Assembly: GCA_000165345.1 (NCBI GenBank)
Contig: CM000429.1
Location: 480,001 to 544,000 of the forward strand
Reading direction: 5' to 3'
DNA: 64,000 nucleotides
Shown: one piece after another, positions 74-54,900 of the stretch
Layout: each line of letters opens with the position of its first letter
How positions within the stretch are numbered: position 1 is the stretch's first letter
Notes under the pieces: model-generated
What the model saw: the letters and a program-made list of their open reading frames with translations, nothing else
Told to the model about the DNA's origin: nothing
Databases searched by the model: none
Program-made: the position numbers and the translations under genes

Positions 74-3000
74 ATGCAGAATAAAATGTTTAGTGATTTA
101 AGGATTCAAGTAATAATTTTGAACATAATCTTGCCAATTTTTTTGGAGTTATTTATTATTAAAAATATTTATGCAAATAACATAGAACCAAATCAAAAAA
201 ATATTTGCTTTGAAGAAATATTTTCAAATCTTAAAATCGAATATACTCATGGTTGGGATTTAAATAAACTGAAAAGCACTTTTCAAAACAAGTTTGATAA
301 TGAATTAATGAAAGACCTGATTTTAAGTATTTTGATATCAGATCTTAATCACCAAATATTTGATGAAAAGACAAAACTAGAAAATATTAATTCAAACAAC
401 TACTCGAATATTAAAGGCTTTTTTTCAATTTTCCAACTTTTACTTAATTTCTGGGACAATAAAAAGGCAGAATTTAGTGAGGATTTTAACTTAACTCACT
501 ATATAAATTATATTATATTGGATGATAATTTTCAATTAAATGATAATTATTCAATTATTCAAAAAAATAGAAAATCTTTTTTTGCACTAATTAAAAAAAA
601 TAATTTATATATTGAAGATTATAATAGTGCGTCCGCCTTGTATCTTCATTTCATAAATATTAGTTTGCGTCGCTTAACTCACCTTCACGCATGCAATTAT
701 GATTCAAATAATCTTAATATGTTTGAAATATATAATAGTATTTATTTATTATCGATTAATACACTAAATATATTATTGGAAATTTTATCTGAAGAACATA
801 AACAGGAAATTGCTGTAAAAGAAATACTACCAACCTTGATACAATTTTTATCAAATAGCAAGCATTTTAACAAAGACTCCTGCTTTACCCAATATCAATT
901 ACGCCTTGATAGAGTTAATTCAGCAAATCATTCAAACGATTTGTCTGTAAAGTACAATTACAAAGAGCCCATAGTTATTTTTGAAATATTTAATTTTATT
1001 AATTCTAATATCATGAAATATGTAAAAATTCAAAATGAAGAACTAGTTCTTGATGAAATTAATAAAATAATAAATGACTTATTAATTATGAATATTGAAA
1101 AATGGATTTATCATTATGTGGCATTAAATGACAGTTTAGTAGTTAGCAAACTTCTTGAAATTGCTGATCAGATATTAATACTTATCATGAAGAATAAGAA
1201 AAATAAATTAAACATATGGGTTACTGAAATCTTAACATCAAAGAATTCTGCACTAAAAAAACTGATTGTAAAAAGGAGCGTGGATAATATGTCAATATTA
1301 TTCAAAATTTTAGATTACTTTTTATTAACGAATAAAACTGAGGTTTTTATATCTGAAATTTTTCCTTACTTAATAGATCAATTAAACGATAAAGATATCA
1401 ATGTCAAATATGAATTCTGTAAATTGATTATACATATTATGGAAAAAATGGAAATGATATTTATACTTCCCTACGGTAAATTTTGTATTGAAAAATGTTT
1501 AGGCGATAAAGAATTCATTATAAAATTAATTGGTTTAAGGTCAGCAAATAAAATATTTAACAGAATAATTTTTGTTGAAAACAAATTAGGCATTAATGAA
1601 TCTGAGATTATTATTCATGAATTAATTGAATCTATTATTACTAACCTCGAAAGTATACTATTTATTAAGTATTATCCACTTATTAAAGAAATTGGAATTA
1701 CATTAAAATACATATACAACTATTCAAGAAAATACAATGATTGGTTAGTCTTTTTTTTATTTTTGAATAAATTCTTTAGAATAAAAGAAAAGAACACAAA
1801 ATGTTTAATAAATATATTTAAACTAAGTAAATTTTCTAGAAATGAGTTTTTGATCTATTATTTCAAAGACATGTTTAAGGACGAAGATAAATCTGCAAGT
1901 GAAAATTACAAAATGGCATCTACAGTTAAACAAGAAAATAATCAGATTTATCCACCTACTTACACAGAATTAATATTGTATACCTTGCCATGTCTTATAA
2001 ATCAATTGAGTTTAAATGATAAATTTGAGCAGATTGTTTTTATTTTATCTTTGATTCAAAAAGAAGCGAAATATAATATTCGAAAACAATTTATTCATGA
2101 TGCATTAAAACTTTTAACAAGAAAAAAAATTTATAATCAATTGTGCGAGCCAGATTTTAAAAAGCCACTACCTATTATTAAAGGAGAATATTTAGGGTCA
2201 ATTTATAATCATAGCAAACTCATTTCTAAATATGATAACAATACAAACATAGGTAATGGATTTAATATTTATCAGAAACTTCTATATATCAATGAAGAAA
2301 TTTACTCTTGTTCTACAAATAATTCAATTAATGCTGGAATATACTTGCATAAGTTAAATGTTCATGATAAGCTTCATTATTGGAATTTAATTACTGATCA
2401 ACTTAATAATTATATTTTTAAATTCAATAATAATAGTTTTGTGACTAGTATGATGACATTATCAAATGAATTTAGCATTATTACAGGGAATAACATTGGA
2501 ATCTTATCCAAAATTAATATTGATACAAGTATAATAACGGTTAACGAGCATTCATATAAAAATGAAAATTTGTTATTTAAACAATGCAGCTTCTTAAATT
2601 CAAAATCCCCAATTATAATATTTGTTGGAAAGATAAAAATTTATTCTAAAGAATTGATTATTTCTGCATATAGTAACGGGGATATATATTTTATTGAATC
2701 AGAGAGGTTGCAAACAGAAATCAGTTTCTCAATTCCCCTATCTTTGGGGAGTGTAATTGACTATTCAGTTGACAATAATTCTAATGATCATTTAATTTCA
2801 TTCGCCACTGATGAAAATATAGTTATTATTATTGATTTATTTTATTTGAAGAGTATGAAAATTTGGAAAATTGATCATGAATTAAGAATTACAAATATTG
2901 GTAGTTCAAATATTAATGATCAATCTTCAAAAATATTGCTTAACTTTAATAGAAATGGTGCTTTTGCACTTTTTGATCCAATTAGTGGTGAAATTGATTC

Positions 3001-3550
3001 TAATGTAGATTTTAAATTCCGGATAACCGAAATAAAAGAAAAGTTCATTCATATTCACAGACCATTTTTGTTTTCATCAAAAATGGTTCACACAGACTTT
3101 AAAAGCATACAAAAGTGTAATTGTCTATATTGTCAAACTCAAAGAGTTAGAATTTTTGGAAATTATTTGAATCAATATCAAATAATGAATCAATACCATA
3201 ATACTACGGTTAAAAAGGAGCGTCTAGTTAATAGAAACATTATTGGGCCGTTTAGTACCACTCATAACAACTTCATAGGCAAAGGACAATGTGCAAATAA
3301 ATATTACATTTTTAATGATGAAATTGGTAACGTTTATCAACAAAGCTTCCTCGACTCTAATTTATGTTATACAGATTCATTTGATTGTATAATTAGTAAA
3401 TACTCAGCGCAGACAAGTTTAATTGGTGTAAACAACGAAAACAAAGGGCATAAAGACTTAATCACATCAATCAGCATATACTCATTTAGTAATGATGAAA
3501 TCGGATTACTTACATCTTCAAGAGATGGTATTATTTCTTACTGGAATTGA
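74..3550 (+). CDS. Large hypothetical protein (1158 aa), N/I/K-rich, with a WD-repeat-like C-terminal tail (..LLTSSRDGIISYWN)
   Basis: Uninterrupted 3.5 kb ORF starting at a true ATG (74-76). No family motif recognised by eye. The composition matches the rest of the window. Confidence 0.45.
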   Translation: MQNKMFSDLRIQVIILNIILPIFLELFIIKNIYANNIEPNQKNICFEEIFSNLKIEYTHGWDLNKLKSTFQNKFDNELMKDLILSILISDLNHQIFDEKTKLENINSNNYSNIKGFFSIFQLLLNFWDNKKAEFSEDFNLTHYINYIILDDNFQLNDNYSIIQKNRKSFFALIKKNNLYIEDYNSASALYLHFINISLRRLTHLHACNYDSNNLNMFEIYNSIYLLSINTLNILLEILSEEHKQEIAVKEILPTLIQFLSNSKHFNKDSCFTQYQLRLDRVNSANHSNDLSVKYNYKEPIVIFEIFNFINSNIMKYVKIQNEELVLDEINKIINDLLIMNIEKWIYHYVALNDSLVVSKLLEIADQILILIMKNKKNKLNIWVTEILTSKNSALKKLIVKRSVDNMSILFKILDYFLLTNKTEVFISEIFPYLIDQLNDKDINVKYEFCKLIIHIMEKMEMIFILPYGKFCIEKCLGDKEFIIKLIGLRSANKIFNRIIFVENKLGINESEIIIHELIESIITNLESILFIKYYPLIKEIGITLKYIYNYSRKYNDWLVFFLFLNKFFRIKEKNTKCLINIFKLSKFSRNEFLIYYFKDMFKDEDKSASENYKMASTVKQENNQIYPPTYTELILYTLPCLINQLSLNDKFEQIVFILSLIQKEAKYNIRKQFIHDALKLLTRKKIYNQLCEPDFKKPLPIIKGEYLGSIYNHSKLISKYDNNTNIGNGFNIYQKLLYINEEIYSCSTNNSINAGIYLHKLNVHDKLHYWNLITDQLNNYIFKFNNNSFVTSMMTLSNEFSIITGNNIGILSKINIDTSIITVNEHSYKNENLLFKQCSFLNSKSPIIIFVGKIKIYSKELIISAYSNGDIYFIESERLQTEISFSIPLSLGSVIDYSVDNNSNDHLISFATDENIVIIIDLFYLKSMKIWKIDHELRITNIGSSNINDQSSKILLNFNRNGAFALFDPISGEIDSNVDFKFRITEIKEKFIHIHRPFLFSSKMVHTDFKSIQKCNCLYCQTQRVRIFGNYLNQYQIMNQYHNTTVKKERLVNRNIIGPFSTTHNNFIGKGQCANKYYIFNDEIGNVYQQSFLDSNLCYTDSFDCIISKYSAQTSLIGVNNENKGHKDLITSISIYSFSNDEIGLLTSSRDGIISYWN

Positions 3551-31638: not shown

Positions 31639-34600
31639 ATGCCTTTATCAAACTACCATAATGAAAGTATTAAAAATATTTGGTTTGGAAATTATTCTCG
31701 AAAAAATGGGCCTAGTCTAATAAAAAAAATCAATATTAATAAAAACACAATTTCATTCATTAAAACGGTATCTCAATTATTAATTATTGATATAATTTTT
31801 ATTATATCTAATATCTATATTAACAGATACATGCTTTCTTTTAAAAGCATTTTTATGTTGGCAATTAATATTCCAATAATATATTTATCTTTGTTTATTT
31901 CACAAAGATTAAATATTTGTTCCTCTGAATTTGTATCGAATCTGGAAAAAAAATTAAATTTTAATACGCTCGAGTCTGGGATTTCAAGTAACAAATTATT
32001 GAGTCTTGAGATTCAATGCTTAAATTCCCTTCGCTTAATAGAAAATGGTTTGATTTCTATTGTTCACTTAATACTTTATCCTGTCAGATTTGGTTTCTTT
32101 GGCTATATTTTTTTTAATAGCAACTGGAATACTTTTTTATTTGTGAATAAAGTTATAGAATTATTCATTTTTACTACAATTTTTGAATGTTTGAGAATTA
32201 AATTATTAATTATTCCTGAACAAAAATCACTTATTATGAACATTAGTGATTATTTTGATAGCTTGAAGACGCTATTACTATTAAGTAACCATAGAGAAGT
32301 TTTCATAAATACACAAAAAATCATTGACTTTACAAAAGGATTATTAAGTTATATACTTGTAATATTTCAAAGTATTTGCACGATGTACCTTGTTTTTAAA
32401 ATAGTGCATTTTTTCAATGAAAAGTCACATGAATTTGGCTTATCACAAATCTATATATTCAATTATTGGTTTGCAATCTATTTACTTTATTCAACAAGAT
32501 ACATTAATTCATGTATCCATTTCATTATTAATTATCGTTATTTTGTTACTCTTTTTCAATTACCCAGTGATACTGGATTAAATTATAGCTTTATACCACA
32601 AAAGATAAGTTATTTCGATAAAAATCATCAAGAATCCGATAAAAATCAAATTTCAGAGCCTTTAATTGATTTCAAAGATTCAGGTAATGAATTTAAAATA
32701 AAAAATAATTACGATACTCTTAACAAAAAATATTCATTAATTTACAATATTCACGATAGTCTGGATAACAGATTCCAAAAAAATTATTCCATTTCAAAAA
32801 AAGTTTCTGATACAATTAATGTTATATCCAATGGAACCAACATTGGTAATGATAATTATGATACCTTAGAAAATGATCATGAATTTAATTTTCAAATTTC
32901 AAATAATTTGTTTAATTCAACAATTATTACTTATAAAAATTTATCAATCTCTGAGAATAAATTTAAAAAACAAATTCACAATTCAAGCAATAAATTTAAG
33001 TTTTTGTTTAATTTATTTGAAAAAAAAATGGGACAAACTAATTATTGTTTAAGCGATCATTGCAATAATCATATGGAAATTACTGACAAGGAATTAATGG
33101 AACATAGATTTTATCTAAATAATATAAATTTATCAATTAAAATGAATGAAGTAATTATTATATTTGGGTCTGATGATAAAAGTAAAGAATTATTAACGAA
33201 ATTTGTTTCTGGATTTCCTGGAATTCAGAGTAATGAACAACTCAAATCTCATTCGACAAATCTTCTCAATTACGATGTTTTTTTAATGAATAGAAAAATG
33301 CTTGAATTTGTCTCAAATTTTTTTGAATATCAAAATTCAGAATTTATAATAGACCCATTCGATTTCATATTATCTGGAAAACCATTTAACAAACATATTT
33401 TTGAGTTGATATATGACTCATTTTTATCTCAATATTTTACGAAGATTGAACCTTCGCATGTGAATTCTGAGACAATTAAAAATTATATTTATCCAAAAGT
33501 TGAAAGTATTCAACAATTTGTCGAGGCAAAAATATTTTTACAACTTTCTCAGTTCTTTTATAACATTTTGACTACGCTTGATAATTATTCATTCGCAATT
33601 GTGATTATTGATGGTATTTTTGAATTATTACTTCCAGAAACTTACATTAAACTAGTTGAAAAGATATTACCGAATAATTCAATATTTTCAGAGTTTAATA
33701 TTTCTTTTATTATTACAACGAATAGTGATTTATTCCCATATTTATCTTATTTATATCAAAATAATTCATATGTCAAGTTGGCAGTGATTAATACGGGAGG
33801 ACTATATTTTACCAAAGATAATTACTTGAAAGTGGAAATTAAAAACAAATTTGTTGAAAATTTGCCGTCAATAGATAATACAATAAATGAAATTTTTAAT
33901 ATTAAATTAAAGAATAACAATACTTACCCTTGTTCAACAAGTATTTCTTCTATCAGCAGATTATTCTTTAAAAGATTTGAAACTAGGAATTTTTATTCAA
34001 GCAAATATTTGATCTATGTTTTTTTTATTGCACTATTTTCATTTACTGTAAAATTGACGATATTTTCTTGCCAGCACCTGACGAAGAATCACAAAAATGT
34101 TAACAATATTTACGACTTTTTTGTATTTGAAACTCTATCTTTTTACCCTCTATACTCGCTAGTTATAACTTCAAGAAATTCTTATTCAAATGGTTTATCA
34201 AGCATACTAATAGGATACGGAGTAATTTCATCGCTTATGCTTAATAGTTATAATGCTTTTTTTTCAGAATCAAACTTCTTGAAAAATAACGAAGTCGTTT
34301 TCAATGAAGGAGAAGTTGATAATTTTGAGGAAATTCCGGAATTTTTGAGAGATATACCAGAAAAACATTACAGTTCCTCACATTTTATTCAATTTAACGG
34401 AAAACAAATATTAAGGACAGAATCATTGTTTTACAAGGATCATTTTCTTAGCTCAAAGACAATAAATATACCTGGAATCAAGCCTAAAGGATTTAATAGT
34501 GCTCTAATTTCGTCCAAGAAAATAAGAAATATCTTAATATGGAAATCAAAAAAAGAATCTAATATTAAATTGTTACAAAAATATGAACAATTTACCATGG

Positions 34601-36339
34601 AAAAAAATCATAAATTTAAATTTAACAAAAATACAATCTTGATATTAACAATATTCTTTTTTATAAATATTGTTTCAAAGGCATTAATAAATATATTAAT
34701 TTTTGGATTTTCGTTAATTAACATTAATTCAATGAGTTATTATAATTGTTTTCATGAATTTTTGAAAATTATTTTGTCTTCAGATGATCCTATTTCAGTT
34801 ATTAATGATATTGAGATAAGAAAAAATAGATATTGTTTATATCTTTTCAAAGAAATATATTGCAAAAGAAGTAAAGTTACAATCCATTATCTAACTTTAA
34901 TTCACTTTCTCAATTTATTACTCTTTTTTGGAATTTCAAACAACTTGCATTATACCGTTGGAATTAGAATATTAATGAACAAGAATCTGCTTATTATTAC
35001 AATATTGTTTCCAATTTTATATAATATTATTAATTTTTCAAACTTTAATATTAACAAAACCAAATATTCAAATCTTGGGTGCAATTCATTTGATTATTAT
35101 TATTACTTGAATAAAAGCAACTCATTACCGTGGTTCAAACGCCAAATATTTAAACTATTAAAACTTAAACAGGAAAACCTCAAAGAATTTTCTAGTTTTA
35201 AAGTGAATTTACTGTTAAATTCGTTCATTTTATCGATTGTAGTTTCATTTCTATACTTTTTATTCAATTATAAAAAGAATGAAAATAATCAACAGCTGAA
35301 AATTGATTTAATAACACTTCTACCAATAATATTTTTTTTAATTCAATCTATTCATTTTCATATTACTCAAAGATCAAAAACTAATACCTTTCATAAACTA
35401 AATCTTTATAGTTACATAAGATGGTTAAAAACATCACTGCAGAAAGCTTATTATTTTCCAATTTATATAAATAAATCAGCAAGTTCAACATCTCCAAAAA
35501 CTAATACTAGCTTTTCATCAAATAAAAGAAATAGTACTTTATATGAAGATGGATATGAACTTTCAACACCAATATCAGGAGATTCTCTGAAAGTTGACCC
35601 GATAATTTCTATTAGTTCGACAAAAGTTCATTTGAGCTCTAATATCGTATTAATTCTGATCAATCCTCTTTTATTTCTAGATAATTCTTTGACATTTGGA
35701 TATGGAAAATCGCCTATATTTCCAATTAAGCAATTAAAGACAGTAAAGATTAATAACTTTGATAGAATTGCAGTAATTTCTAACCATAATTTAATATCAT
35801 CATATTGGACAATTAATATGGTTTTAGATCCGAAAGGCATGTATACAAATGACAATAAAAGCCTTTTGCATACATTAAAATCATTAGACATTTTCCCTAA
35901 TGTACTCGACAATTTTGACCAGAATGTAATTTTGAACATGCCAATACGAGAATATTTAGAATTTTTTAATTCTCAAGTTGTTGATAGTGAATTGTCTGTC
36001 ACCGGTGATATCAAAATTACAAATTTTGAACGCGATATTAGATCACAAGATTTGAATAAATTAGAGCAACACTTAAGTAAAGCAGAAGAAAACTTACGTG
36101 ATACAATTTATATTAAAAAGTTATTGCTTTTTGGACATTTTGCACTTTATTCTATGTACTACAGAGAACTAATTTTACACTTAGATTATAATATGGATCT
36201 TAATGTTTGGATTTCACTTGTCAAACAATTTTTTGATAACGAGGAATCTTCAATTAATAATATAATAATTATTTCAACAGAAACAGATTTACCAAATATC
36301 ATTGAAACTGAAACTAGATTATATAATGAAGGGAAGTAA
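31639..36339 (+). CDS. Large polytopic membrane protein (1566 aa) with two degenerate ABC-type nucleotide-binding-like regions (ABC transporter-like, probably non-canonical)
   Basis: Many predicted TM helices lie in two clusters. After the first cluster there is a degenerate Walker A (IIFGSDDKSKELL), a signature-like ILSGKP and a Walker-B-like AIVIIDG. Near the C-terminus there is a Walker-B-like LILINPLLFLDNSL and an H-loop-like RIAVISNHNL. True ATG start. Confidence 0.45.
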   Translation: MPLSNYHNESIKNIWFGNYSRKNGPSLIKKININKNTISFIKTVSQLLIIDIIFIISNIYINRYMLSFKSIFMLAINIPIIYLSLFISQRLNICSSEFVSNLEKKLNFNTLESGISSNKLLSLEIQCLNSLRLIENGLISIVHLILYPVRFGFFGYIFFNSNWNTFLFVNKVIELFIFTTIFECLRIKLLIIPEQKSLIMNISDYFDSLKTLLLLSNHREVFINTQKIIDFTKGLLSYILVIFQSICTMYLVFKIVHFFNEKSHEFGLSQIYIFNYWFAIYLLYSTRYINSCIHFIINYRYFVTLFQLPSDTGLNYSFIPQKISYFDKNHQESDKNQISEPLIDFKDSGNEFKIKNNYDTLNKKYSLIYNIHDSLDNRFQKNYSISKKVSDTINVISNGTNIGNDNYDTLENDHEFNFQISNNLFNSTIITYKNLSISENKFKKQIHNSSNKFKFLFNLFEKKMGQTNYCLSDHCNNHMEITDKELMEHRFYLNNINLSIKMNEVIIIFGSDDKSKELLTKFVSGFPGIQSNEQLKSHSTNLLNYDVFLMNRKMLEFVSNFFEYQNSEFIIDPFDFILSGKPFNKHIFELIYDSFLSQYFTKIEPSHVNSETIKNYIYPKVESIQQFVEAKIFLQLSQFFYNILTTLDNYSFAIVIIDGIFELLLPETYIKLVEKILPNNSIFSEFNISFIITTNSDLFPYLSYLYQNNSYVKLAVINTGGLYFTKDNYLKVEIKNKFVENLPSIDNTINEIFNIKLKNNNTYPCSTSISSISRLFFKRFETRNFYSSKYLIYVFFIALFSFTVKLTIFSCQHLTKNHKNVNNIYDFFVFETLSFYPLYSLVITSRNSYSNGLSSILIGYGVISSLMLNSYNAFFSESNFLKNNEVVFNEGEVDNFEEIPEFLRDIPEKHYSSSHFIQFNGKQILRTESLFYKDHFLSSKTINIPGIKPKGFNSALISSKKIRNILIWKSKKESNIKLLQKYEQFTMEKNHKFKFNKNTILILTIFFFINIVSKALINILIFGFSLININSMSYYNCFHEFLKIILSSDDPISVINDIEIRKNRYCLYLFKEIYCKRSKVTIHYLTLIHFLNLLLFFGISNNLHYTVGIRILMNKNLLIITILFPILYNIINFSNFNINKTKYSNLGCNSFDYYYYLNKSNSLPWFKRQIFKLLKLKQENLKEFSSFKVNLLLNSFILSIVVSFLYFLFNYKKNENNQQLKIDLITLLPIIFFLIQSIHFHITQRSKTNTFHKLNLYSYIRWLKTSLQKAYYFPIYINKSASSTSPKTNTSFSSNKRNSTLYEDGYELSTPISGDSLKVDPIISISSTKVHLSSNIVLILINPLLFLDNSLTFGYGKSPIFPIKQLKTVKINNFDRIAVISNHNLISSYWTINMVLDPKGMYTNDNKSLLHTLKSLDIFPNVLDNFDQNVILNMPIREYLEFFNSQVVDSELSVTGDIKITNFERDIRSQDLNKLEQHLSKAEENLRDTIYIKKLLLFGHFALYSMYYRELILHLDYNMDLNVWISLVKQFFDNEESSINNIIIISTETDLPNIIETETRLYNEGK

Positions 36340-45160: not shown

Positions 45161-46132
45161 CTAATTGATTGACAATATTGATTCAAATAACTTTATCATT
45201 GCTTCATAAATTAGGAACATTATTCCACTGTGCATGCTAACTTTAGGAATATGAGTCATTAGTCCTGGGAAATAATGGTCCCTTGCAAAGTTGACAAACT
45301 CTTTATGGCTTAATTTTAATATATTGATATCGTAGGTTTTTAGTTGGATATTTTCTATCTTAGCCATTTGCATCCTGGATCTAATAACCTGTAGTGGGTA
45401 TGTCAATGCCGATGCTAATAACTTCGAAATGAATCCAAAGATGAAGAAGCGTAGATTACTCAGATAAAGATGTTTTGAATTATAATTAATTGATTGATTT
45501 CGAAATATGTCATATATTACAAGTTGTATCAATGTATGCGGAATCAACATTAAAGTTGGAATGAACCCAGAATATAAACCACATATTCCATTTTTTTGGT
45601 AAATACTATACATGCATTCAGCAATGCCATGTAACCCAGCAGAATATTGCTTCCAGCCCTTTTTCTTTGTATTTACTGATTGAATTTCTAACCTGGATTT
45701 AACTAACCAAAGTGGATGAACGAGAGCAGTCGAAAGCACACTTGCAATGATTGTTGAAATTGAATTTGAGAACGGAGAAATTTGTAAAGGATAAAAGCAT
45801 GTTTGGCTTTTAACAACGTAGCTGAACACAAAACACTTATTTTCTTCTATAAAATAACGGATAAAATCAAAAAAGTACCTAAAAATAAACCATGAGACTC
45901 CAGATGCAACTAACTGGCCGTTTAATCCCTTATATAATCCAATAACTCCTTCAGTATCTATTATAAAGTTGATTGTGGATATCAATGTCGGGTGTGCGAT
46001 CACTGCACCATCGGATGCTGCTGCCACTTGCTGTCTAGTCCTTACTACATCTAGTGGATGAAGTAAAAAAGAAGTTATTATTGCAGATATAAGCGATGAA
46101 GTTGCTGTTAAAAAGAATTTAATTTTCTTCAT
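45161..46132 (-). CDS. Mitochondrial carrier family (SLC25) protein
   Basis: Tripartite ~100-aa repeats with the P-x-D/E-x-x-K/R signature (PLDVVRTRQQV, PLWLVKSRLEI, PLQVIRSRMQM). True ATG start. Confidence 0.75.
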   Translation of the reverse strand: MKKIKFFLTATSSLISAIITSFLLHPLDVVRTRQQVAAASDGAVIAHPTLISTINFIIDTEGVIGLYKGLNGQLVASGVSWFIFRYFFDFIRYFIEENKCFVFSYVVKSQTCFYPLQISPFSNSISTIIASVLSTALVHPLWLVKSRLEIQSVNTKKKGWKQYSAGLHGIAECMYSIYQKNGICGLYSGFIPTLMLIPHTLIQLVIYDIFRNQSINYNSKHLYLSNLRFFIFGFISKLLASALTYPLQVIRSRMQMAKIENIQLKTYDINILKLSHKEFVNFARDHYFPGLMTHIPKVSMHSGIMFLIYEAMIKLFESILSIN

Positions 46133-46550: not shown

Positions 46551-48239
46551 ATGGAAAAAATACCATTGGAACTTCTTGCAACAGTCAGCGAGTATCTACA
46601 AATGGTAGATATTTTTAGTCTATTGCATCTTAATAGAGGCTTTAACTATCTTTGGACAAGCCTTGAGTACTGGAGCATAGTATGTAGGGGGAGAAGAAAT
46701 TATCTGAATTTACTTGCAAATGAGTTTAATTGTATCTTAGAAGACTTGAAATCATTTAGTTTGAACAAAAGTAGCCAAGACGACTTAGTAGATAGTGATA
46801 ATAACGAATATTTTGGATTTAATTTAAATAACCTTAAAGCTAGTTTTAAACTTATGGGTTACAAGACAAAATGCAATGATAAATCAATTTTATGGAAGAT
46901 TTTTGTTAAGAGAAGATTAAGAAGATTGGACTTAGTACATTTGACTTCTGTTTTTCAGGATGTTAAAATATACAAATACGATAAAAAAATTATTGCTGTT
47001 TTTTCCCCTTTAATAGCAACAATTTCACAACATTTTTTAGAAATTTATGAACTTAGAAATGATAATTATTTAGGTAGAAAGTATTTTGATACCACGCCTG
47101 AAAAGCTAATTGATATAAAAACAAAATTAATCACACGCCTAAATTTAGACTTACTTCAAGGCCAAGAGAATGTTACATTGAACAACATTGAGCCGAAGAT
47201 AAGAACAGCCAACATAGTGAAATGGGCATTTTTTGATAAAAATACAATTCTTTGCGTTACGAAAGATTATGGGATCTATATTCATGAAATCAGCAATTTA
47301 TCAAAAAGAATAGCCTTAAAGAAACCGCAGGTGAACAAGTATCCAACTTTACCAAAAGTCGTCATTTTTGAAATATCTGGCAGCCTGCTTGCTATTGGCT
47401 TAGAAGATGGAGTTGTAGATATTTGGAAGCTTTTATCTTCTGAACGTGCATGTTCTAACTTGAAATGGGAAAAGTGGTATTTGACGCATCACTGTACAAT
47501 TTATTATGAACATAGATATTCCCGGAAAAGTTTAATTGATGTTTTTGAAGAAATACCCTCACCTTTAACATGGGTGAATATATCTCATAATTGCAACTTG
47601 CTACTGGCAATTTATAAAGGGGTCGTAAATGAAATTCGAATATTTTCAATTAATAAGTTAGATTTGAATAATAACCCGGCATTAATGAACAAAATTCCTC
47701 TCTATAGCGACATTCAAATGTGCCAAATAGATCCGAAGGGAAGGTTTGTAATTTGCGTTGATTCGAGCAAAGAAATTCACCCCAAAACTCGATTTTATTC
47801 CCTTTCATCTGGTAAGCTTCTTCTGGTACAGAACTTCAGAATTATTTGTCCATTATTTACCTCTTGCGGACATTTATTGATCGGCGCATACCGTGCACAC
47901 CCGAACATTCCAATTGAAAAATCTCAAAGTACAATGAAAATCATTAAAACATCGCCTAAACATATTAATAGTGAGTTTACGAGTAGCTGTTTTATCTCTA
48001 TTTGGAGTATTCCGTCTCTAAAGGAAATATATTCTTTCAATTGCGGAAAATCAGAACAAATTATAAATATTCGTTTTTCTAAAACTCGTAACTCAACGTC
48101 TATAATCACAACAACAATAAATAAAAATAGTTCAGACTATATTGATGGATCAATAATCAAGACATCTTCAAATATTCATTTTATTTCACATGATTTTTTT
48201 ACAAGCATTAAACCGATGAAATTGCCGCATTTTTTCTAA
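46551..48239 (+). CDS. F-box-like / WD-repeat-like protein
   Basis: N-terminal F-box-like segment (IPLELLATVSEYLQMVDIFSLLHLNRGFNYLW), followed by WD-like beta-strand blocks (LAIGLEDGVVDIWKL). True ATG start. Confidence 0.45.
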   Translation: MEKIPLELLATVSEYLQMVDIFSLLHLNRGFNYLWTSLEYWSIVCRGRRNYLNLLANEFNCILEDLKSFSLNKSSQDDLVDSDNNEYFGFNLNNLKASFKLMGYKTKCNDKSILWKIFVKRRLRRLDLVHLTSVFQDVKIYKYDKKIIAVFSPLIATISQHFLEIYELRNDNYLGRKYFDTTPEKLIDIKTKLITRLNLDLLQGQENVTLNNIEPKIRTANIVKWAFFDKNTILCVTKDYGIYIHEISNLSKRIALKKPQVNKYPTLPKVVIFEISGSLLAIGLEDGVVDIWKLLSSERACSNLKWEKWYLTHHCTIYYEHRYSRKSLIDVFEEIPSPLTWVNISHNCNLLLAIYKGVVNEIRIFSINKLDLNNNPALMNKIPLYSDIQMCQIDPKGRFVICVDSSKEIHPKTRFYSLSSGKLLLVQNFRIICPLFTSCGHLLIGAYRAHPNIPIEKSQSTMKIIKTSPKHINSEFTSSCFISIWSIPSLKEIYSFNCGKSEQIINIRFSKTRNSTSIITTTINKNSSDYIDGSIIKTSSNIHFISHDFFTSIKPMKLPHFF

Positions 48240-48903: not shown

Positions 48904-49563
48904 ATGAAAACAATTACTGTTGCGATTGTATTATCTTTGGTTTGGATATATGTACACTTTTGTTCAAGCTTCGAAAACAGGATAGAAGATATTGCATTAC
49001 TCAAGCTTAGAGGTTCTGTAGAAATGGGAGATCAACTAAAAGGTGGTCCTCACTATACAGGGATGATGGTAGGAGGTAGGCATGTTGGGATTGAACATTC
49101 TTTGGATCTTGGCGATTTATCGCAAGTATATCGCTGCTTGTTTTATTCTACTCACCCAGGATCATGCAATCCTTCAGGGACGGTAATAAATCCTTGCCAT
49201 TTTTGTAGAACTGAAGTGGTTTATGCTGTCGCTTCCGCAAAATGCCCTGGAGACGAGTCATTCCCCCCAAGTTTGGCTCCTTTATATATGTGGGTCTTGA
49301 AACCATATCATATTAGAAAAAGATTAGGGCATCAATATCTTTGCGCTGTAGAGCCGAATCCTGCAGCTAAATATGCATCTCGCCCTTCAAATGAATCACC
49401 GCTTTCATCAGATGAAAACTCATATCCGCTACCTCCAGAAATCCCATTTTCTCCATCGAATAATCAAAATGAATCCTTAAGTGAAAGTACATTGATGATT
49501 ATCATTGGGTCAGGCGTTTTGCTCACGCTATTACTTTGCGGTGTAGGGTTGTACATGGTTTAA
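48904..49563 (+). CDS. Secreted cysteine-rich protein with a C-terminal hydrophobic tail (GPI-anchor-like or TM), family A member 1
   Basis: Signal peptide (MKTITVAIVLSLVWIYVHFCSS). A 6-Cys module C-x-FY-x3-PG-x-C..PC-x2-C..C-PG-x-ESFP..L.P.Y.WV. A terminal hydrophobic stretch LMIIIGSGVLLTLLLCGVGLYMV. The coding sequence is visibly GC-richer than the neighbours. Confidence 0.5.
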   Translation: MKTITVAIVLSLVWIYVHFCSSFENRIEDIALLKLRGSVEMGDQLKGGPHYTGMMVGGRHVGIEHSLDLGDLSQVYRCLFYSTHPGSCNPSGTVINPCHFCRTEVVYAVASAKCPGDESFPPSLAPLYMWVLKPYHIRKRLGHQYLCAVEPNPAAKYASRPSNESPLSSDENSYPLPPEIPFSPSNNQNESLSESTLMIIIGSGVLLTLLLCGVGLYMV

Positions 49564-50054
49564 TTAAATTATTATAAAAAATAAAGTCTTATATTAATAA
49601 TGTATCTATATCTATCTATCAGTTCTAAAGATAAGTAGTTGAATTTATTAAAAAAAATGTGTGGCTTGCAGCATTAAAAAGTTACACAGTTAAATAAATC
49701 ACGTGGCAATAAAAAGCCTTGTACCCTAAAATGTAATTATGGGAAGATACAACTAAGGGTCCAATTTGAATGAAGAGGTATCAATATATTTCCAAAGTAA
49801 TGAACAGGACTTTTGTCACAAAAATCTAAATAAAAGCAATATTCCCTCTCTTCTCTCCAAATTATAAATAAAGGGCGGGCAATATAAAACGTTACCTAAA
49901 TGAAAGGTTAGGTTGATTTTTTTTATTATAGAAAAAACGAATATAAGAATTTAGATCAGAAATTTTTAAAGACTTTTTGAATTATATTTATCTTAGTTAA
50001 TTGGGATCAATCTAAATCCCCTGTAATTAAAAATCAAAAAAAAACGCGTCAAAG

Positions 50055-51050
50055 ATGAAATACTACTTGCCTTTCGGAGTATTACTCTTAATTATACAAC
50101 TTTATCTTTCAAGGTGTTCTGAATCTTCGGAAGATACGGAAAGCGAAGTTCTTTCGATTCAAGATTCGTCTGAATTGAGGGATTGCAAACAAGCCATAAG
50201 TGGTATATCAGGAGCTGGTTATCATGAATTTACATTGGACCCTTCACTATTGAAGGTAATTTCGGAAATGGGTAATTCAGGCCAACCGTGCCGATTTATT
50301 GTAGTTGATGGCATGCAGCAGAACTATCAGCAGGCTGATGATGGTGGTTCATCAAGCCAAGTAAATTATTTAAGCCAACAAGTTCAGACTCCAATGCAAA
50401 TGACAATGCAAACGCAAATGCCAGTTCAAATGCCAATGCAAATGCCAATGCAAATGCCAACACAAATGCAAATACAAAGAACTAATCAGGGATTGCAGTT
50501 CGGACACGGTAATATGGTACAATGGGTAGGTGGACCAGTCAACTTTGACAACATGGTTGACTGTAAGTTCTACCGTCAAAATCCGGGATTTTGTGTACCT
50601 ATGTCTATCTATACTCCTTGTTCACGTTGTAAGGCGCGTGTGAGAACAATTTTTAGAACTAGTTACAAGGTTAGATGTCCTGGCCAGGAATCTTTCCCAG
50701 CACAATTGAGGCCTTACTTTGCTTGGGTGCCTACTAGTCATCGTAACCCAAAGAGAGAGAGAGGAATATTTTCCAGATGGAGACGCCAGTTTATGTGCAT
50801 TGTAATGGCAATTTCCGATATTCCAAAGGATGTTTCTTTGTTTTGGCAGCATTCTCAGATAACTTTCGATTCTGCATATGAAACACCACAATATGTTCCT
50901 TTACTTCTTGGTCCATATGGAGATCAGTCTACTGCACTGGGATATGCTGCTGGCACAAACTTCCTTACTTCTAGCGGCTTAAGTTATCAAGGCGCACGTC
51001 ATTATATTCAAAATCAAAATTCAGAACGAAATGCCCACGAAGCTTCCTAA
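50055..51050 (+). CDS. Secreted cysteine-rich protein, paralog of the 48904 gene, with an internal (M-P/T-x-Q)n repeat
   Basis: Signal peptide. The same 6-Cys module (VDCKFYRQNPGFC...TPCSRCKARV...VRCPGQESFPAQLRPYFAWV) aligns residue-for-residue with the upstream gene. No C-terminal hydrophobic tail. Confidence 0.5.
   Translation: MKYYLPFGVLLLIIQLYLSRCSESSEDTESEVLSIQDSSELRDCKQAISGISGAGYHEFTLDPSLLKVISEMGNSGQPCRFIVVDGMQQNYQQADDGGSSSQVNYLSQQVQTPMQMTMQTQMPVQMPMQMPMQMPTQMQIQRTNQGLQFGHGNMVQWVGGPVNFDNMVDCKFYRQNPGFCVPMSIYTPCSRCKARVRTIFRTSYKVRCPGQESFPAQLRPYFAWVPTSHRNPKRERGIFSRWRRQFMCIVMAISDIPKDVSLFWQHSQITFDSAYETPQYVPLLLGPYGDQSTALGYAAGTNFLTSSGLSYQGARHYIQNQNSERNAHEAS
50389..50470 (+). repeat. Imperfect 12-bp-period tandem repeat (caaatgccaatg)n encoding a QMPxQMPMQMPMQMPTQMQ tract
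   Basis: Directly visible: ccaatgcaaatgacaatgcaaacgcaaatgccagttcaaatgccaatgcaaatgccaatgcaaatgccaacacaaatgcaaatacaa. Confidence 0.7.
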
Positions 51051-51204: not shown

Positions 51205-51758
51205 ATGACAAATCTCTTTGCTGACGAGATGAAAGAGGAGGACACGTTTTTACTTAATAATTCACTAATACCAGGCCGTTCTATTGAAAACGGGCTAGGA
51301 AATATGATTGACAAAATAGAAAGTGAAAAAGCTCAGTTATTTTCATGCGGTAAGTGAAATGTTTATACAAATATTTTCATTTGATTCAATGAAGTAAAAT
51401 CAATAATAGATGCATATTGGGACTGCACAGATATAAAATTTACAACTGATGCAGTTTTTTCAGTAACTAAATTGTCATGCGACTTCATGGATAAGATAGT
51501 AAGTACGATATTTATTAATCTCAGTTTTATTACGTTTTAATTAAGATGTTATGCGCAATTAAATTGACTAACTCAAAGAATATTGACCAGTCCTTTACAT
51601 TTGATAGCATATTGTCCGTGTTGGAGAATGATGATCGGAAACATAAAAGAGCACAAGATGTTATAAGGTCATATAGAAGACATAATGAATTACTATTTGC
51701 ATTCGAGGACAGAGAATATATAAAGTCCTCAAATCGCGACGCAATAGGAACTAAGTGA
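51205..51758 (+). CDS. Small three-exon gene (~130 aa, product unknown)
   Basis: ATG at ~51205. Exon 1 ends ..AQLFSC at a GTAAGT (~51350). Intron 1 ends at ttttttcAG (~51463). Exon 2 is a 35-nt micro-exon, ~51464-51498, followed by a GTAAGT. Intron 2 ends at ttaattaAG (~51545). Exon 3 is the 51546-51758 ORF, and all phases are compatible. Confidence 0.35.
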
Positions 51759-51941: not shown

Positions 51942-54900
51942 ATGAGTAACCTCGAAAAATTAGTTATTTGTGGGGTGAGAAGCTTTTCACCTGACCGTAG
52001 GGAGGGCATTGCCTTTGAAAGTCCAATTACATTAATTGTAGGCCAAAATGGATCGGGTAAAACAACAATAATAGAATGCTTAAAAGCATCTATATCTGGT
52101 GAGCTTCCTCCTAGTTCTAAGAGTGGGCAGTATTTCATTCACGATCCTAAATTGAATGGATCTGCTGAGGTTAGGGCTCAAATAAGATTAATTTTTAGAG
52201 AGTATCAAAATAAAAAAAAGATTCAAATAGTTAGATCATTTCAGCTATCCCATATTAAGACTAGGAAGGCTGATTTAAAATCTACTGGGGATTTAAAGCC
52301 TCAATTTAGAGTTTTAGAAAGTGTTTTACAGACTAAAGATGAAGAATCTGGGCAAGTGACCAGTATAAGTCATAAATGTGCAGATATAAATGCTCAAGTT
52401 CCTATTTTATTTGGGGTTTCTAATTCGATAATTGAAAATGTACTATTTTGTCATCAAGAGGATTCAAACTGGCCATTACAAGATATGGCTAAAGTTAAAA
52501 AAAAATTTGATGAATTATTTGGATCCACAAGATATAGCAAAGCTTTGGAATTAATTACAAAGTTGAAGGGTGAATATAATAAGAAAATTAAGGAGAAAGC
52601 TTTATTTAACGAGAACTTAAAACAGAAAATCGACTTTTTGAAAGGAATAATAAATAAAAAAAATCAATGTTTACTTAGAAAAGCTGAGATAAATAAGGAA
52701 ATGCAGGTTTTAGCCACTAAATTAGATTCACATTTGAATATGAAGCAAGAATTGATGAAAAATGTAGATATGTTAGATAAGCTTCAGTCTGAGCTTATTT
52801 TTGAAATGTCATTATTTGATACACACGTAAAGGAGATAAAAGAAATGGAAAACGTTTTATTAAAATCAAATTATAATCAATTAGAAGATGAATTAGAAAT
52901 TAATTCACTCTTGCATAATGAATTCGAAGAAATTCAAAATCTGAATTCTAAACTTAAAAACTTGCAAAACCAAACAAATCACATCAAAAATAATCTAGAA
53001 AATTTTGGAGTAAACAGCTCAGCAGATGAGTTTGCTCAACGAAAAAATGAGGTTCTTAGAAAAATTGCTGAAATAAAAAAATTAACAGCCTCGAAAGAAA
53101 TATTATTGTTTTTAGAAAATTCTTTGGTTGCTTTAAATGAACAGCTAACTAATTATAAGGATTTGAATTGGGAATCAGTACAAAAAACCATTTCTATACT
53201 AGAAGTTAACAAGACTGAAATAGATTCTTCATTAGTTAATTTAAAAGCAGAATTAAACTTCAAGATAGAAGAAAAGAAAAAATTATTCGACTCTATTAAT
53301 AATAAAAGAGAAGAGCAAATGAAATTGCAAAAAGATTTTGATAAGATTTGTGAGAAAATTAAAGAGAAAACGCATATAGATAATGAGATAAATTGTTTAA
53401 AATCAAAAATCCAGGAAAATACAGATATTTATACTAATGAAAAGTTATTCAATGTGAATTATTTGAATAACGCATATAATTGTACATATGATCTGGGAAA
53501 AATTAATGGCGAACTGACTATTTTGGAGCGTATAAAGAGTTCTAATATATTTAATATTACTCATTTTGAATATGATGAAAGCGCTGGAAGCTTTAGTGAG
53601 ATGATTGAACGAAGGGAAACTGAGTATCAATGTAAAAAAATTGAAACTTTGAACATCTGGAAGGAACTAGAACAGATCGTAGGAGATTTTGGGACTAAAG
53701 ATAACACTTCAATGTTAGATTTCCAATGCAAATTACTATTGGAAAAACTCGAAAGTTTCCCATTAGATATGGAAAATCGGCAAATAGAATTAAAAAGCTC
53801 ACTTAGTCAAATTGAGATAGAGATATTAATAATTGACGAAAATATTCAACGCCTTGAATTTGAAATTCAAGAAGTAACAAATAAAATCCAATTTGCCAAC
53901 TTGGAAATTAAAAATCTGGAAATTGAGCACTGCAAAAGGAAAGATTTTTTGAAGAATTCTATTGAAGAGTTAGAACAAGATTTCGAATTTCTCTTTCGAA
54001 ATAGGTAAGTTTCTCGCACTAATCAAAGAAAAAACAACGCTTTATAGAAAAATGTTTGATATATCTAATCAAGATGTTTCAAATAAGACCCTTATTCAAT
54101 CTCTTTTATCAATTCGAGAAGAAGAGGCTAATCTTAATACTAAGATCGTTAAATCGAATCAAATTATTGAGGAATTGAATAACGTGATAAAATTGATGAA
54201 TAAGCGGAAACAACTTGAATCATCTAAAAAAAATATTAATATACTTAATCATAATATTTATTCCCTACTAGGAATAAATAAGCTAGAGTGTTTGACAGAA
54301 ACTGACTTTGGCCATAATAAAAGTTTTATTCAAGAATTATACCTTAAAAAAAAAAATGAATTGGATGTTCTTCAAATAGCAATCGAGAAAATACGATGTG
54401 AAATATCAAAACTGACAGGCGAATTTAAGTCCAATGAAAACTGGCTGGAAAAGTTCACATGTGACTCAAAAGGCTATTCTTCTATAGAGGAGTTGTCTGA
54501 AAAGTACCTAAGTGGAGTTTTTGAACAACAGACAATGAGTTTGTGTGTTAAAGATTTGGAGAAGTACCATAAATCTCTTCAGAAAGCACTAATGAAGTTT
54601 CACATAGATAAAATGACGGAAATTAATAGAACTATAAAGGAGTTATGGAACATTACTTATAAAGGTCATGATATTGACTATATCGCAATAAGGAGCGATG
54701 CAGAGGATAATGAAGAAAATTTCACTGTGGAAAAAAAATCATCGCGAACTCCTTCCGGAACTAAGTCGTTTAATTATAGAGTAGTAATGATACAAAATGG
54801 TGTAGAACTTGACATGAAAGGTAGGATTTAAACAAAACGCGCAAATTTATTGGATAATTCTTTTTTTTTAGGAAGATGCTCTGCCGGTCAAAGAGTGCTT

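Follow-up and report, generated by a model that had tools for sequence, protein, structure and literature searches.

An unnamed six-cysteine module in a conserved tandem pair of predicted secretory proteins of Cryptosporidium

Results

Two neighbouring genes encoding predicted secretory proteins

The 64,000-nucleotide stretch of DNA analysed here (positions 480,001 to 544,000 of contig CM000429.1, assembly GCA_000165345.1; hereafter the window) contains two neighbouring open reading frames (ORFs), A and B, that encode predicted secretory proteins with a common six-cysteine module. The pair lies at approximately 534 kb of the 881-kb record of Cryptosporidium parvum chromosome 1, and the window has a guanine plus cytosine (GC) content of about 30%, with densely packed genes, most of them without introns. 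The product of ORF A is identical to EAK88377.1 of C. parvum Iowa II, and that of ORF B is 100% identical to a C. parvum Iowa II entry annotated 'signal peptide, secreted protein'. Gene identifiers were fixed by placing published reverse transcription–polymerase chain reaction (RT-PCR) primers (PMC3305300, Table S2) on the window sequence. Primers for cgd1_2130 to cgd1_2460 fell in numerical order along the window; the cgd1_2400 primer mapped to position 50308, within ORF B, and cgd1_2370 was identified in the same way as the mitochondrial carrier gene at 45161..46132. ORF A lies between cgd1_2380 and cgd1_2400 and is therefore cgd1_2390, an identification by position. The features of the two genes are as follows.

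48904..49563, + strand: cgd1_2390 (ORF A), 219 residues, from the ORF list
48904..48969, + strand: signal-peptide-like N-terminus of A, approximately residues 1–22, MKTITVAIVLSLVWIYVHFCSS; hydrophobic, kept in orthologues, cleavage site putative
49033..49134, + strand: N-terminal extension of the module in A, residues 44–77, GGPHYTGMMVGGRHVGIEHSLDLGDLSQV; near-invariant, with columns invariant across the genus
49135..49344, + strand: six-cysteine module of A, C78 to C147, from BLASTP, alignment and an AlphaFold2 model
49345..49491, + strand: polar Ser/Pro/Asn-rich stalk of A, residues 148–196, with the candidate glycosylphosphatidylinositol (GPI) omega region NNQNESLSEST
49492..49560, + strand: C-terminal hydrophobic tail of A, residues 197–219, LMIIIGSGVLLTLLLCGVGLYMV; putative GPI-attachment signal or C-terminal membrane anchor
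50055..51050, + strand: cgd1_2400 (ORF B), 331 residues, from the ORF list
50055..50117, + strand: signal-peptide-like N-terminus of B, approximately residues 1–21, from the hydrophobicity profile; kept in orthologues
50393..50478, + strand: hexanucleotide repeat coding for a Q/M/P low-complexity stretch of B, from Tandem Repeats Finder (period 6, 14.3 copies)
50562..50798, + strand: six-cysteine module of B, C170 to C248, strongly basic, from BLASTP and alignment
50799..50930, + strand: C-terminal extension of B, residues 249–292, conserved in the genus, with invariant FWQ-x-SQ and P-x-LL-x-P

The six-cysteine module

Comparison of A and B by BLASTP gave an E-value of 5e-12, with 33% identity across 82 residues, and a profile-profile comparison of the two sets of orthologues with hhalign gave a probability of 97.3% (E=1.7e-11). 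All six module cysteines were aligned and paired one to one, residues 78, 88, 98, 101, 114 and 147 of A with residues 170, 180, 189, 192, 208 and 248 of B. As an earlier note on this DNA had claimed, the two adjacent genes share the module along its full length. The similarity is far above chance, and by this measure A and B are true paralogues. The residues of the motif drawn up in the earlier note were right (C-x-FY-x3-PG-x-C, PC-x2-C, CPG-x-ESFP and WV), but its spacings hold only approximately: 7–8 residues separate the second cysteine from PC rather than 6, with one indel, and 12 residues in A and 15 in B separate the fourth and fifth cysteines rather than 11. Cysteine spacing in C. parvum is C-x9-C-x8/9-C-x2-C-x12/15-C-x32/39-C, and some distant relatives are wider, especially between the fourth and fifth cysteines. 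The skeleton C-x-[FWMS]-[YF]-x(5-6)-C-x-P-x(6-7)-C-x2-C-x(12-20)-C-P-x(31-41)-C describes A, B and 25 further sequences, and in the 27-sequence alignment the six cysteines and two prolines are invariant. The module spans approximately 75 residues, or approximately 110 with the conserved N-terminal extension, and its six cysteines presumably make three disulfides. No third copy of the module is present in the window.

A structural model of the 81-residue module of A was built with AlphaFold2 from the 27-sequence alignment, distant relatives included, and had a mean predicted local distance difference test score (pLDDT) of 89.1 and a predicted template modelling score of 0.76. In this model a short helix follows the first cysteine, and there are three strands, the last two of which form a long hairpin. 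With Cryptosporidium sequences alone (19 rows) AlphaFold gave a pLDDT of 41, and that model was discarded.

Searches of Pfam returned no family for A at E up to 1, only a sub-threshold and irrelevant match to Cauli_VI for B, and no match for ten distant relatives. Profile searches of PDB sequences returned only non-significant matches, with E above 0.2, and a fold search of the model against the PDB found no match, so that 'no known fold' covers solved structures only. The module thus fits no named domain by Pfam, PDB sequence or PDB fold, as had been suspected from the letters of the sequence.

Several candidate relationships were tried and rejected. The weak PDB sequence matches to eL37 and Gremlin (E above 0.2) are probably due to cysteine spacing, and those to IL-1 receptor accessory protein and a histone deacetylase were likewise non-significant at E above 0.2. 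A zinc-ribbon reading of C-x2-C was discarded, the motif occurring once and being accompanied by no conserved histidine.

The predicted hairpin, from the conserved tryptophan to the sixth cysteine, has a net charge of +2 to +7 in 27 of 27 sequences, while its sequence and length vary. The mean charge per residue is +0.26 in the hairpin against +0.04 in the rest of the module. In B, the net charge is +9 from the first cysteine to the conserved tryptophan and +6 in the hairpin. Charge is kept in the hairpin while sequence varies, and a polyanion-binding surface is therefore suggested.

Termini and repeat

Both proteins begin with signal-peptide-like segments, as proposed earlier, on a heuristic call from hydrophobicity. 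Kyte-Doolittle values exceed 1.6 across residues 1–23 of A and residues 3–21 of B; in A the hydrophobic N-terminus is followed by small residues, and a signal peptide was annotated by the depositors.

The hydrophobicity profile also bore out the claim that one member of the pair ends in a hydrophobic tail. The tail of A is 23 residues long (residues 197–219), has a mean hydrophobicity of approximately 2.0–2.7 and extends to the very end of the protein, leaving no cytoplasmic tail. Ahead of it, at a distance of 5–8 positions, are small residues (N, S), and N189-E-S191 followed by LSEST resembles an omega-site pattern by eye only. The motif LLCG-x-G-x-Y within the tail is invariant across Cryptosporidium. 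From its sequence, the tail would serve either as a GPI signal or simply as a membrane anchor.

There is no hydrophobic C-terminal tail in B, whose last 18 residues have a hydrophobicity of -1.83. The Met/Pro/Gln repeat that the earlier note had described for the second gene is real, but it sits N-terminal of the module and not at the C-terminus. C. tyzzeri has a shorter Q/M/P stretch and other species almost none, and the N-terminal half of B is barely alignable between Cryptosporidium species. The underlying hexanucleotide microsatellite may vary between isolates, and could then be used as a typing marker.

Relatives in other apicomplexans

A profile built from the Cryptosporidium A and B cores was run with hmmsearch exhaustively over 1.84 billion representatives (E up to 1e-3). 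This gave 23 matches, comprising three Cryptosporidium clusters and 20 others (E 1.6e-13 to 7.7e-4); across the family as a whole, E-values range from 5e-60 to 7.7e-4. A word-indexed search with the profile of all 27 sequences yielded 2 matches, its filter being ill suited to so short and divergent a module. Relatives with organism names come from Besnoitia besnoiti, Neospora caninum, Cardiosporidium cionae, Porospora cf. gigantea, a Gregarina species and Blabericola migrator, and are annotated as hypothetical, uncharacterised or transmembrane proteins. The family is thus present in coccidia, gregarines and Cardiosporidium, and the suggestion that it is lineage-specific falls. A G-x-G...DL-S/T-x-E-I stretch similar to that of A precedes the first cysteine in distant relatives. 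Most relatives share the order signal, module, tail: a C-terminal hydrophobic tail with nothing after it, as in A, was found in 18 of the 20 non-Cryptosporidium relatives, and the remaining two have no tail, as in B. The lack of cytoplasmic residues after the tail, seen in sequences across the family, argues for GPI anchoring.

Three paralogues were found in Porospora cf. gigantea. In Porospora cf. gigantea B, P0041 and P0037 have locus tags five apart (KVP17_000305 and KVP17_000310), on contigs of approximately 10–11 kb. A tandem duplication of the family is thus possible in this gregarine too, whether shared with Cryptosporidium or independent. A neighbour-joining tree of 80 columns put B beside the Porospora paralogues, a placement that we judged unreliable. 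No mention of the Neospora, Besnoitia, C. ubiquitum or C. muris locus tags of the family was found in the literature searched. That literature appears to contain no description of the domain family, its breadth or its conservation; the genes themselves are already in databases as hypothetical proteins.

Conservation within the genus

Orthologues of cgd1_2390 are present in every Cryptosporidium species sampled, and the exhaustive profile search found only the A and B groups within the genus. The gastric species C. serpentis and C. bovis share with C. parvum the gene order PP1 phosphatase, mitochondrial carrier, (WD-repeat gene), A, B, small gene, Rad50, and A and B are adjacent by locus tags in C. 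ubiquitum and C. ryanae. The tandem pair is kept across the genus, and the duplication therefore predates the Cryptosporidium radiation. The core of A is 91% and that of B 82% identical in C. parvum and C. bovis; among the neighbours, the mitochondrial carrier is 51% identical and PP1 99%.

These comparisons bear on the proposal of the earlier note that the pair belongs to an antigen family. The signal peptides, the surface-anchor-like tail and the cysteine-rich module would be in keeping with a family of surface antigens that is variable, confined to one lineage and under immune pressure from the host, as would the differences between species in the N-terminal half and repeat of B. However, there are just two copies in the genus, in one-to-one orthology and conserved synteny, their cores are far more conserved than the adjacent housekeeping gene for the mitochondrial carrier, and relatives exist in coccidia and gregarines. 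We therefore consider such an antigen family very improbable. As judged from sequence, the pattern is that of a constrained functional core and not that of an immune-driven variable antigen.

Transcript levels

Published expression values were taken from the supplement of PMC6877471, which gives log2 values for sporozoites, 24 h and 48 h in three replicates each. For cgd1_2400 these are 13.5, 13.4 and 13.4 in sporozoites, 7.7–8.0 at 24 h and 7.9–8.0 at 48 h, and for cgd1_2390 they are 7.3–7.4, 3.6–4.3 and 4.0–4.2 respectively (PMC6877471). The values correspond to a sporozoite enrichment of approximately 50-fold for B and 9-fold for A, and show cgd1_2400 to be one of the sporozoite's most abundant transcripts. 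It is within the top 500 genes in sorted samples of asexual stages, of females in vitro and of females in vivo (PMC6877471). In the RT-PCR data, 18S-normalised values for cgd1_2400 are 1e-4 to 7e-3, with peaks at 2 h and 24 h, 100–1000 times those of its neighbours, and cgd1_2390 is at approximately 1e-7, as are its neighbours, one outlier replicate aside (PMC3305300). The outlier is one of four cgd1_2390 replicates at 2 h, with a value of 8.19E-04 (PMC3305300, Table S1), and is probably technical, or carry-over from the highly expressed cgd1_2400. A comparison of the DNA upstream of A and B for common motifs found only short AT-rich chance matches.

Cysteine-rich composition, predicted secretion and high transcript levels in sporozoites from oocysts would all suit a structural protein, cross-linked by disulfides, in the wall or matrix of the oocyst or sporocyst, resembling the COWPs, which are likewise cysteine-rich secreted Cryptosporidium proteins. 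To our knowledge, oocysts or gametocysts are formed in all lineages with the family, and we counted this in favour of a wall protein. In COWPs, type I/II cysteine repeats form large tandem arrays, and expression is induced in the female gamete. A and B, unlike COWPs, have one module each and no long cysteine-repeat arrays, and show no Pfam-level relationship to wall-protein families; a membrane tail would also be unexpected in a wall matrix protein. Moreover, wall proteins are induced in females, whereas cgd1_2400 falls below its asexual level in females in vitro (log2 fold change -1.77; PMC6877471). A structural role in the wall is on this evidence improbable.

The proteins could instead be housekeeping factors of the secretory pathway or of organelle biogenesis, for instance luminal cargo-condensing or receptor-like proteins, and not surface ligands. 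This would agree with their strong conservation and with the expression of cgd1_2400 in all stages examined, including its high rank in asexual and female samples, and the highly basic B would suit the condensing of acidic cargo. Against it stand the strong sporozoite enrichment of both transcripts and the C-termini of A and B, at which no endoplasmic reticulum-retention or sorting motif is evident. We regard a housekeeping role as unlikely, although the present observations would be compatible with either it or the binding-unit model discussed below.

Base composition

The earlier note had described both genes as GC-richer than every other gene in the window. In overall GC this held: A and B, at approximately 0.402 and 0.407, are the highest of the 32 window ORFs of at least 150 residues, the next being 0.386 and 0.379 and the other ORFs spanning 0.24–0.39. 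At third codon positions it did not, the values of 0.30 (A) and 0.32 (B) falling within the range of 0.20–0.37 of the other ORFs; the excess sits in codon positions 1 and 2. No ORF surpasses A and B in Gly/Ala/Arg/Pro content, which one other equals, and their Phe/Tyr/Met/Ile/Asn/Lys content is the lowest of all. At the opposite extreme, ORFs at 74–3550 (1158 residues) and 31639–36339 (1566 residues) have a GC of 0.24 and the highest Phe/Tyr/Met/Ile/Asn/Lys content in the window.

Expected GC was calculated from the amino-acid sequence and the codon usage of the other 30 window ORFs. The predicted values were 0.397 (A) and 0.396 (B), compared with 0.403 and 0.408 observed, leaving residuals of +0.006 and +0.012; those of the other ORFs have a mean of 0.004 and a standard deviation of 0.013. 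The GC excess is fully predicted by amino-acid composition and therefore indicates neither special codon usage nor foreign origin. Thus, although the pair has the top overall GC in the window, its unremarkable third positions, its small residuals, the 24–28% GC of the intergenic DNA flanking A and B and the apicomplexan identity of all named homologues make foreign or compositionally distinct DNA, or special codon usage linked to expression, scarcely credible. The idea that the excess signals a different codon usage, history or origin can be set aside, and a false lead is thereby removed, the GC-rich appearance being a composition effect.

Neighbouring genes

Upstream of A, cgd1_2380 (46551–48239) has weak Pfam matches to F-box and WD40. 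It is strongly divergent, with 35% identity to the C. serpentis gene across the aligned part and a length of 562 residues in C. parvum against 780 in C. serpentis, and the C. bovis locus has no gene call there.

Between cgd1_2400 and Rad50, at 51205–51758, lies a small multi-exon gene in which ORFs of 50 and 70 residues are flanked by GT/AG sites. A single 153-residue product is annotated for it in one assembly, a gene of 150 residues occupies the same position in C. serpentis, and no Pfam match was found. The Rad50-like gene cgd1_2410 (51942–54831) is split into two ORFs, 51942..54008 (688 residues) and 54052..54831 (259 residues), which are parted by a short GT...AG intron at approximately 54007–54048 (AGgtaagt...tttatag); its product in other assemblies is 1046–1093 residues long.

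Discussion

We consider it moderately probable that A and B are an old tandem pair, one tethered and one soluble, of an unnamed apicomplexan module family, and that they serve the zoite as binding units for an anionic partner. On this model cgd1_2390 would keep the family plan of signal peptide, module, short polar stalk and C-terminal hydrophobic tail, so displaying its module on the extracytoplasmic face of a membrane, while cgd1_2400, very basic and having lost the tail, would be released as a soluble product. Both proteins would be made mainly for the invasive zoite. The module would act as a rigid binding unit whose last two strands form a positively charged hairpin, and the partner might be a conserved anionic molecule, for example a glycan that is sulfated or acidic, an acidic lipid or a likewise acidic protein of the parasite. 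Binding would take place at the surface of the zoite or within its secretory organelles, with the tethered and the soluble form serving a single step and perhaps joined in a complex. From the hydrophobicity profiles we infer secretion and the membrane topology of both proteins; localisation, anchor type, ligand and any A–B complex are proposed as parts of the model.

In Apicomplexa, the term '6-Cys' normally denotes the s48/45 domain, a beta-sandwich of approximately 120 residues that has its own Pfam model and is related to SAG1/SRS. In Plasmodium, s48/45 proteins form pairs (P12/P41, Pfs48/45/Pfs230) in which one member is GPI-anchored and the other soluble, and the genes are often in tandem. 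A and B resemble these pairs, in a likeness known here from sequence, as apicomplexan secretory paralogues with a six-cysteine module in tethered and soluble forms. They differ in that the module is 70–80 residues long, is predicted to fold as a helix and a three-stranded sheet, and has no Pfam or PDB fold match. The label '6-Cys' is misleading for the module, which is not an s48/45 domain.

A second parallel is gp40/15 (GP60), a single cleaved mucin-like precursor whose products, GPI-anchored gp15 and soluble gp40, work jointly on the surface of sporozoites or merozoites. It too provides Cryptosporidium with tethered and soluble secretory products of the zoite stage; however, it is highly polymorphic and not cysteine-rich, whereas A and B are two genes whose products are cysteine-rich and strongly conserved. 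GP60 has been named as an invasion protein (PMC12443312).

A compact disulfide-locked module on a stalk or anchor also recalls the adhesive modules of microneme proteins (TSR, EGF, PAN/Apple, Kazal, CPW-WPC). The cysteine spacing of the A/B module differs from that of all of these, and, unlike EGF, TSR, PAN/Apple, Kazal, Kringle and CPW-WPC, it has no Pfam match in A or B (E up to 1) or in ten relatives. As we see it, the module defines a new domain family in a well-known class, the cysteine-rich secretory proteins of Apicomplexa.

Several observations weigh against the model of tethered and soluble binding units. The sporozoite transcripts of A and B are approximately 60-fold apart, a poor fit to a 1:1 complex. 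Within the hairpin there are dibasic sites (IRKR, PKRER, AKRSR), which could make it a protease-processing site instead of a binding surface. The invariance of LLCG-x-G-x-Y and the 23-residue length of the tail of A would be unusual for a cleaved GPI signal, and point towards a retained transmembrane helix. The predicted structure was derived from just 27 sequences, and the absence of a known fold would apply within the limits of the PDB. One search round with the Cryptosporidium-only profile gave no named match in Plasmodium, Babesia, Theileria or Eimeria, and the spread of family sequences found would not support a role universal to Apicomplexa. Finally, no localisation, proteomic or genetic data were found for either gene, and neither identifier occurs in the main text of the literature searched.

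In its most far-reaching form, the proposal would be that the module is an ancient extracellular domain, widespread in Apicomplexa, whose fold is absent from solved structures, and that the tethered and soluble proteins come together at the zoite surface, where the hairpin would contact an anionic ligand in a step required for attachment or invasion. We put this forward as a doubtful but consequential possibility; if true, it would provide an abundant and invariant antibody or vaccine target across Cryptosporidium, with coccidian counterparts. We know of no vaccine for Cryptosporidium, and its known surface proteins are mostly polymorphic mucins. A secreted and tethered pair that is near-invariant across the genus, one member of which makes up approximately 1% of sporozoite mRNA, would be a useful target, and would serve also as a marker of zoite secretory biology. 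With these proteins, an unnamed domain family would join the apicomplexan secretory toolkit, linking Cryptosporidium, gregarines and coccidia, and it merits a domain definition.

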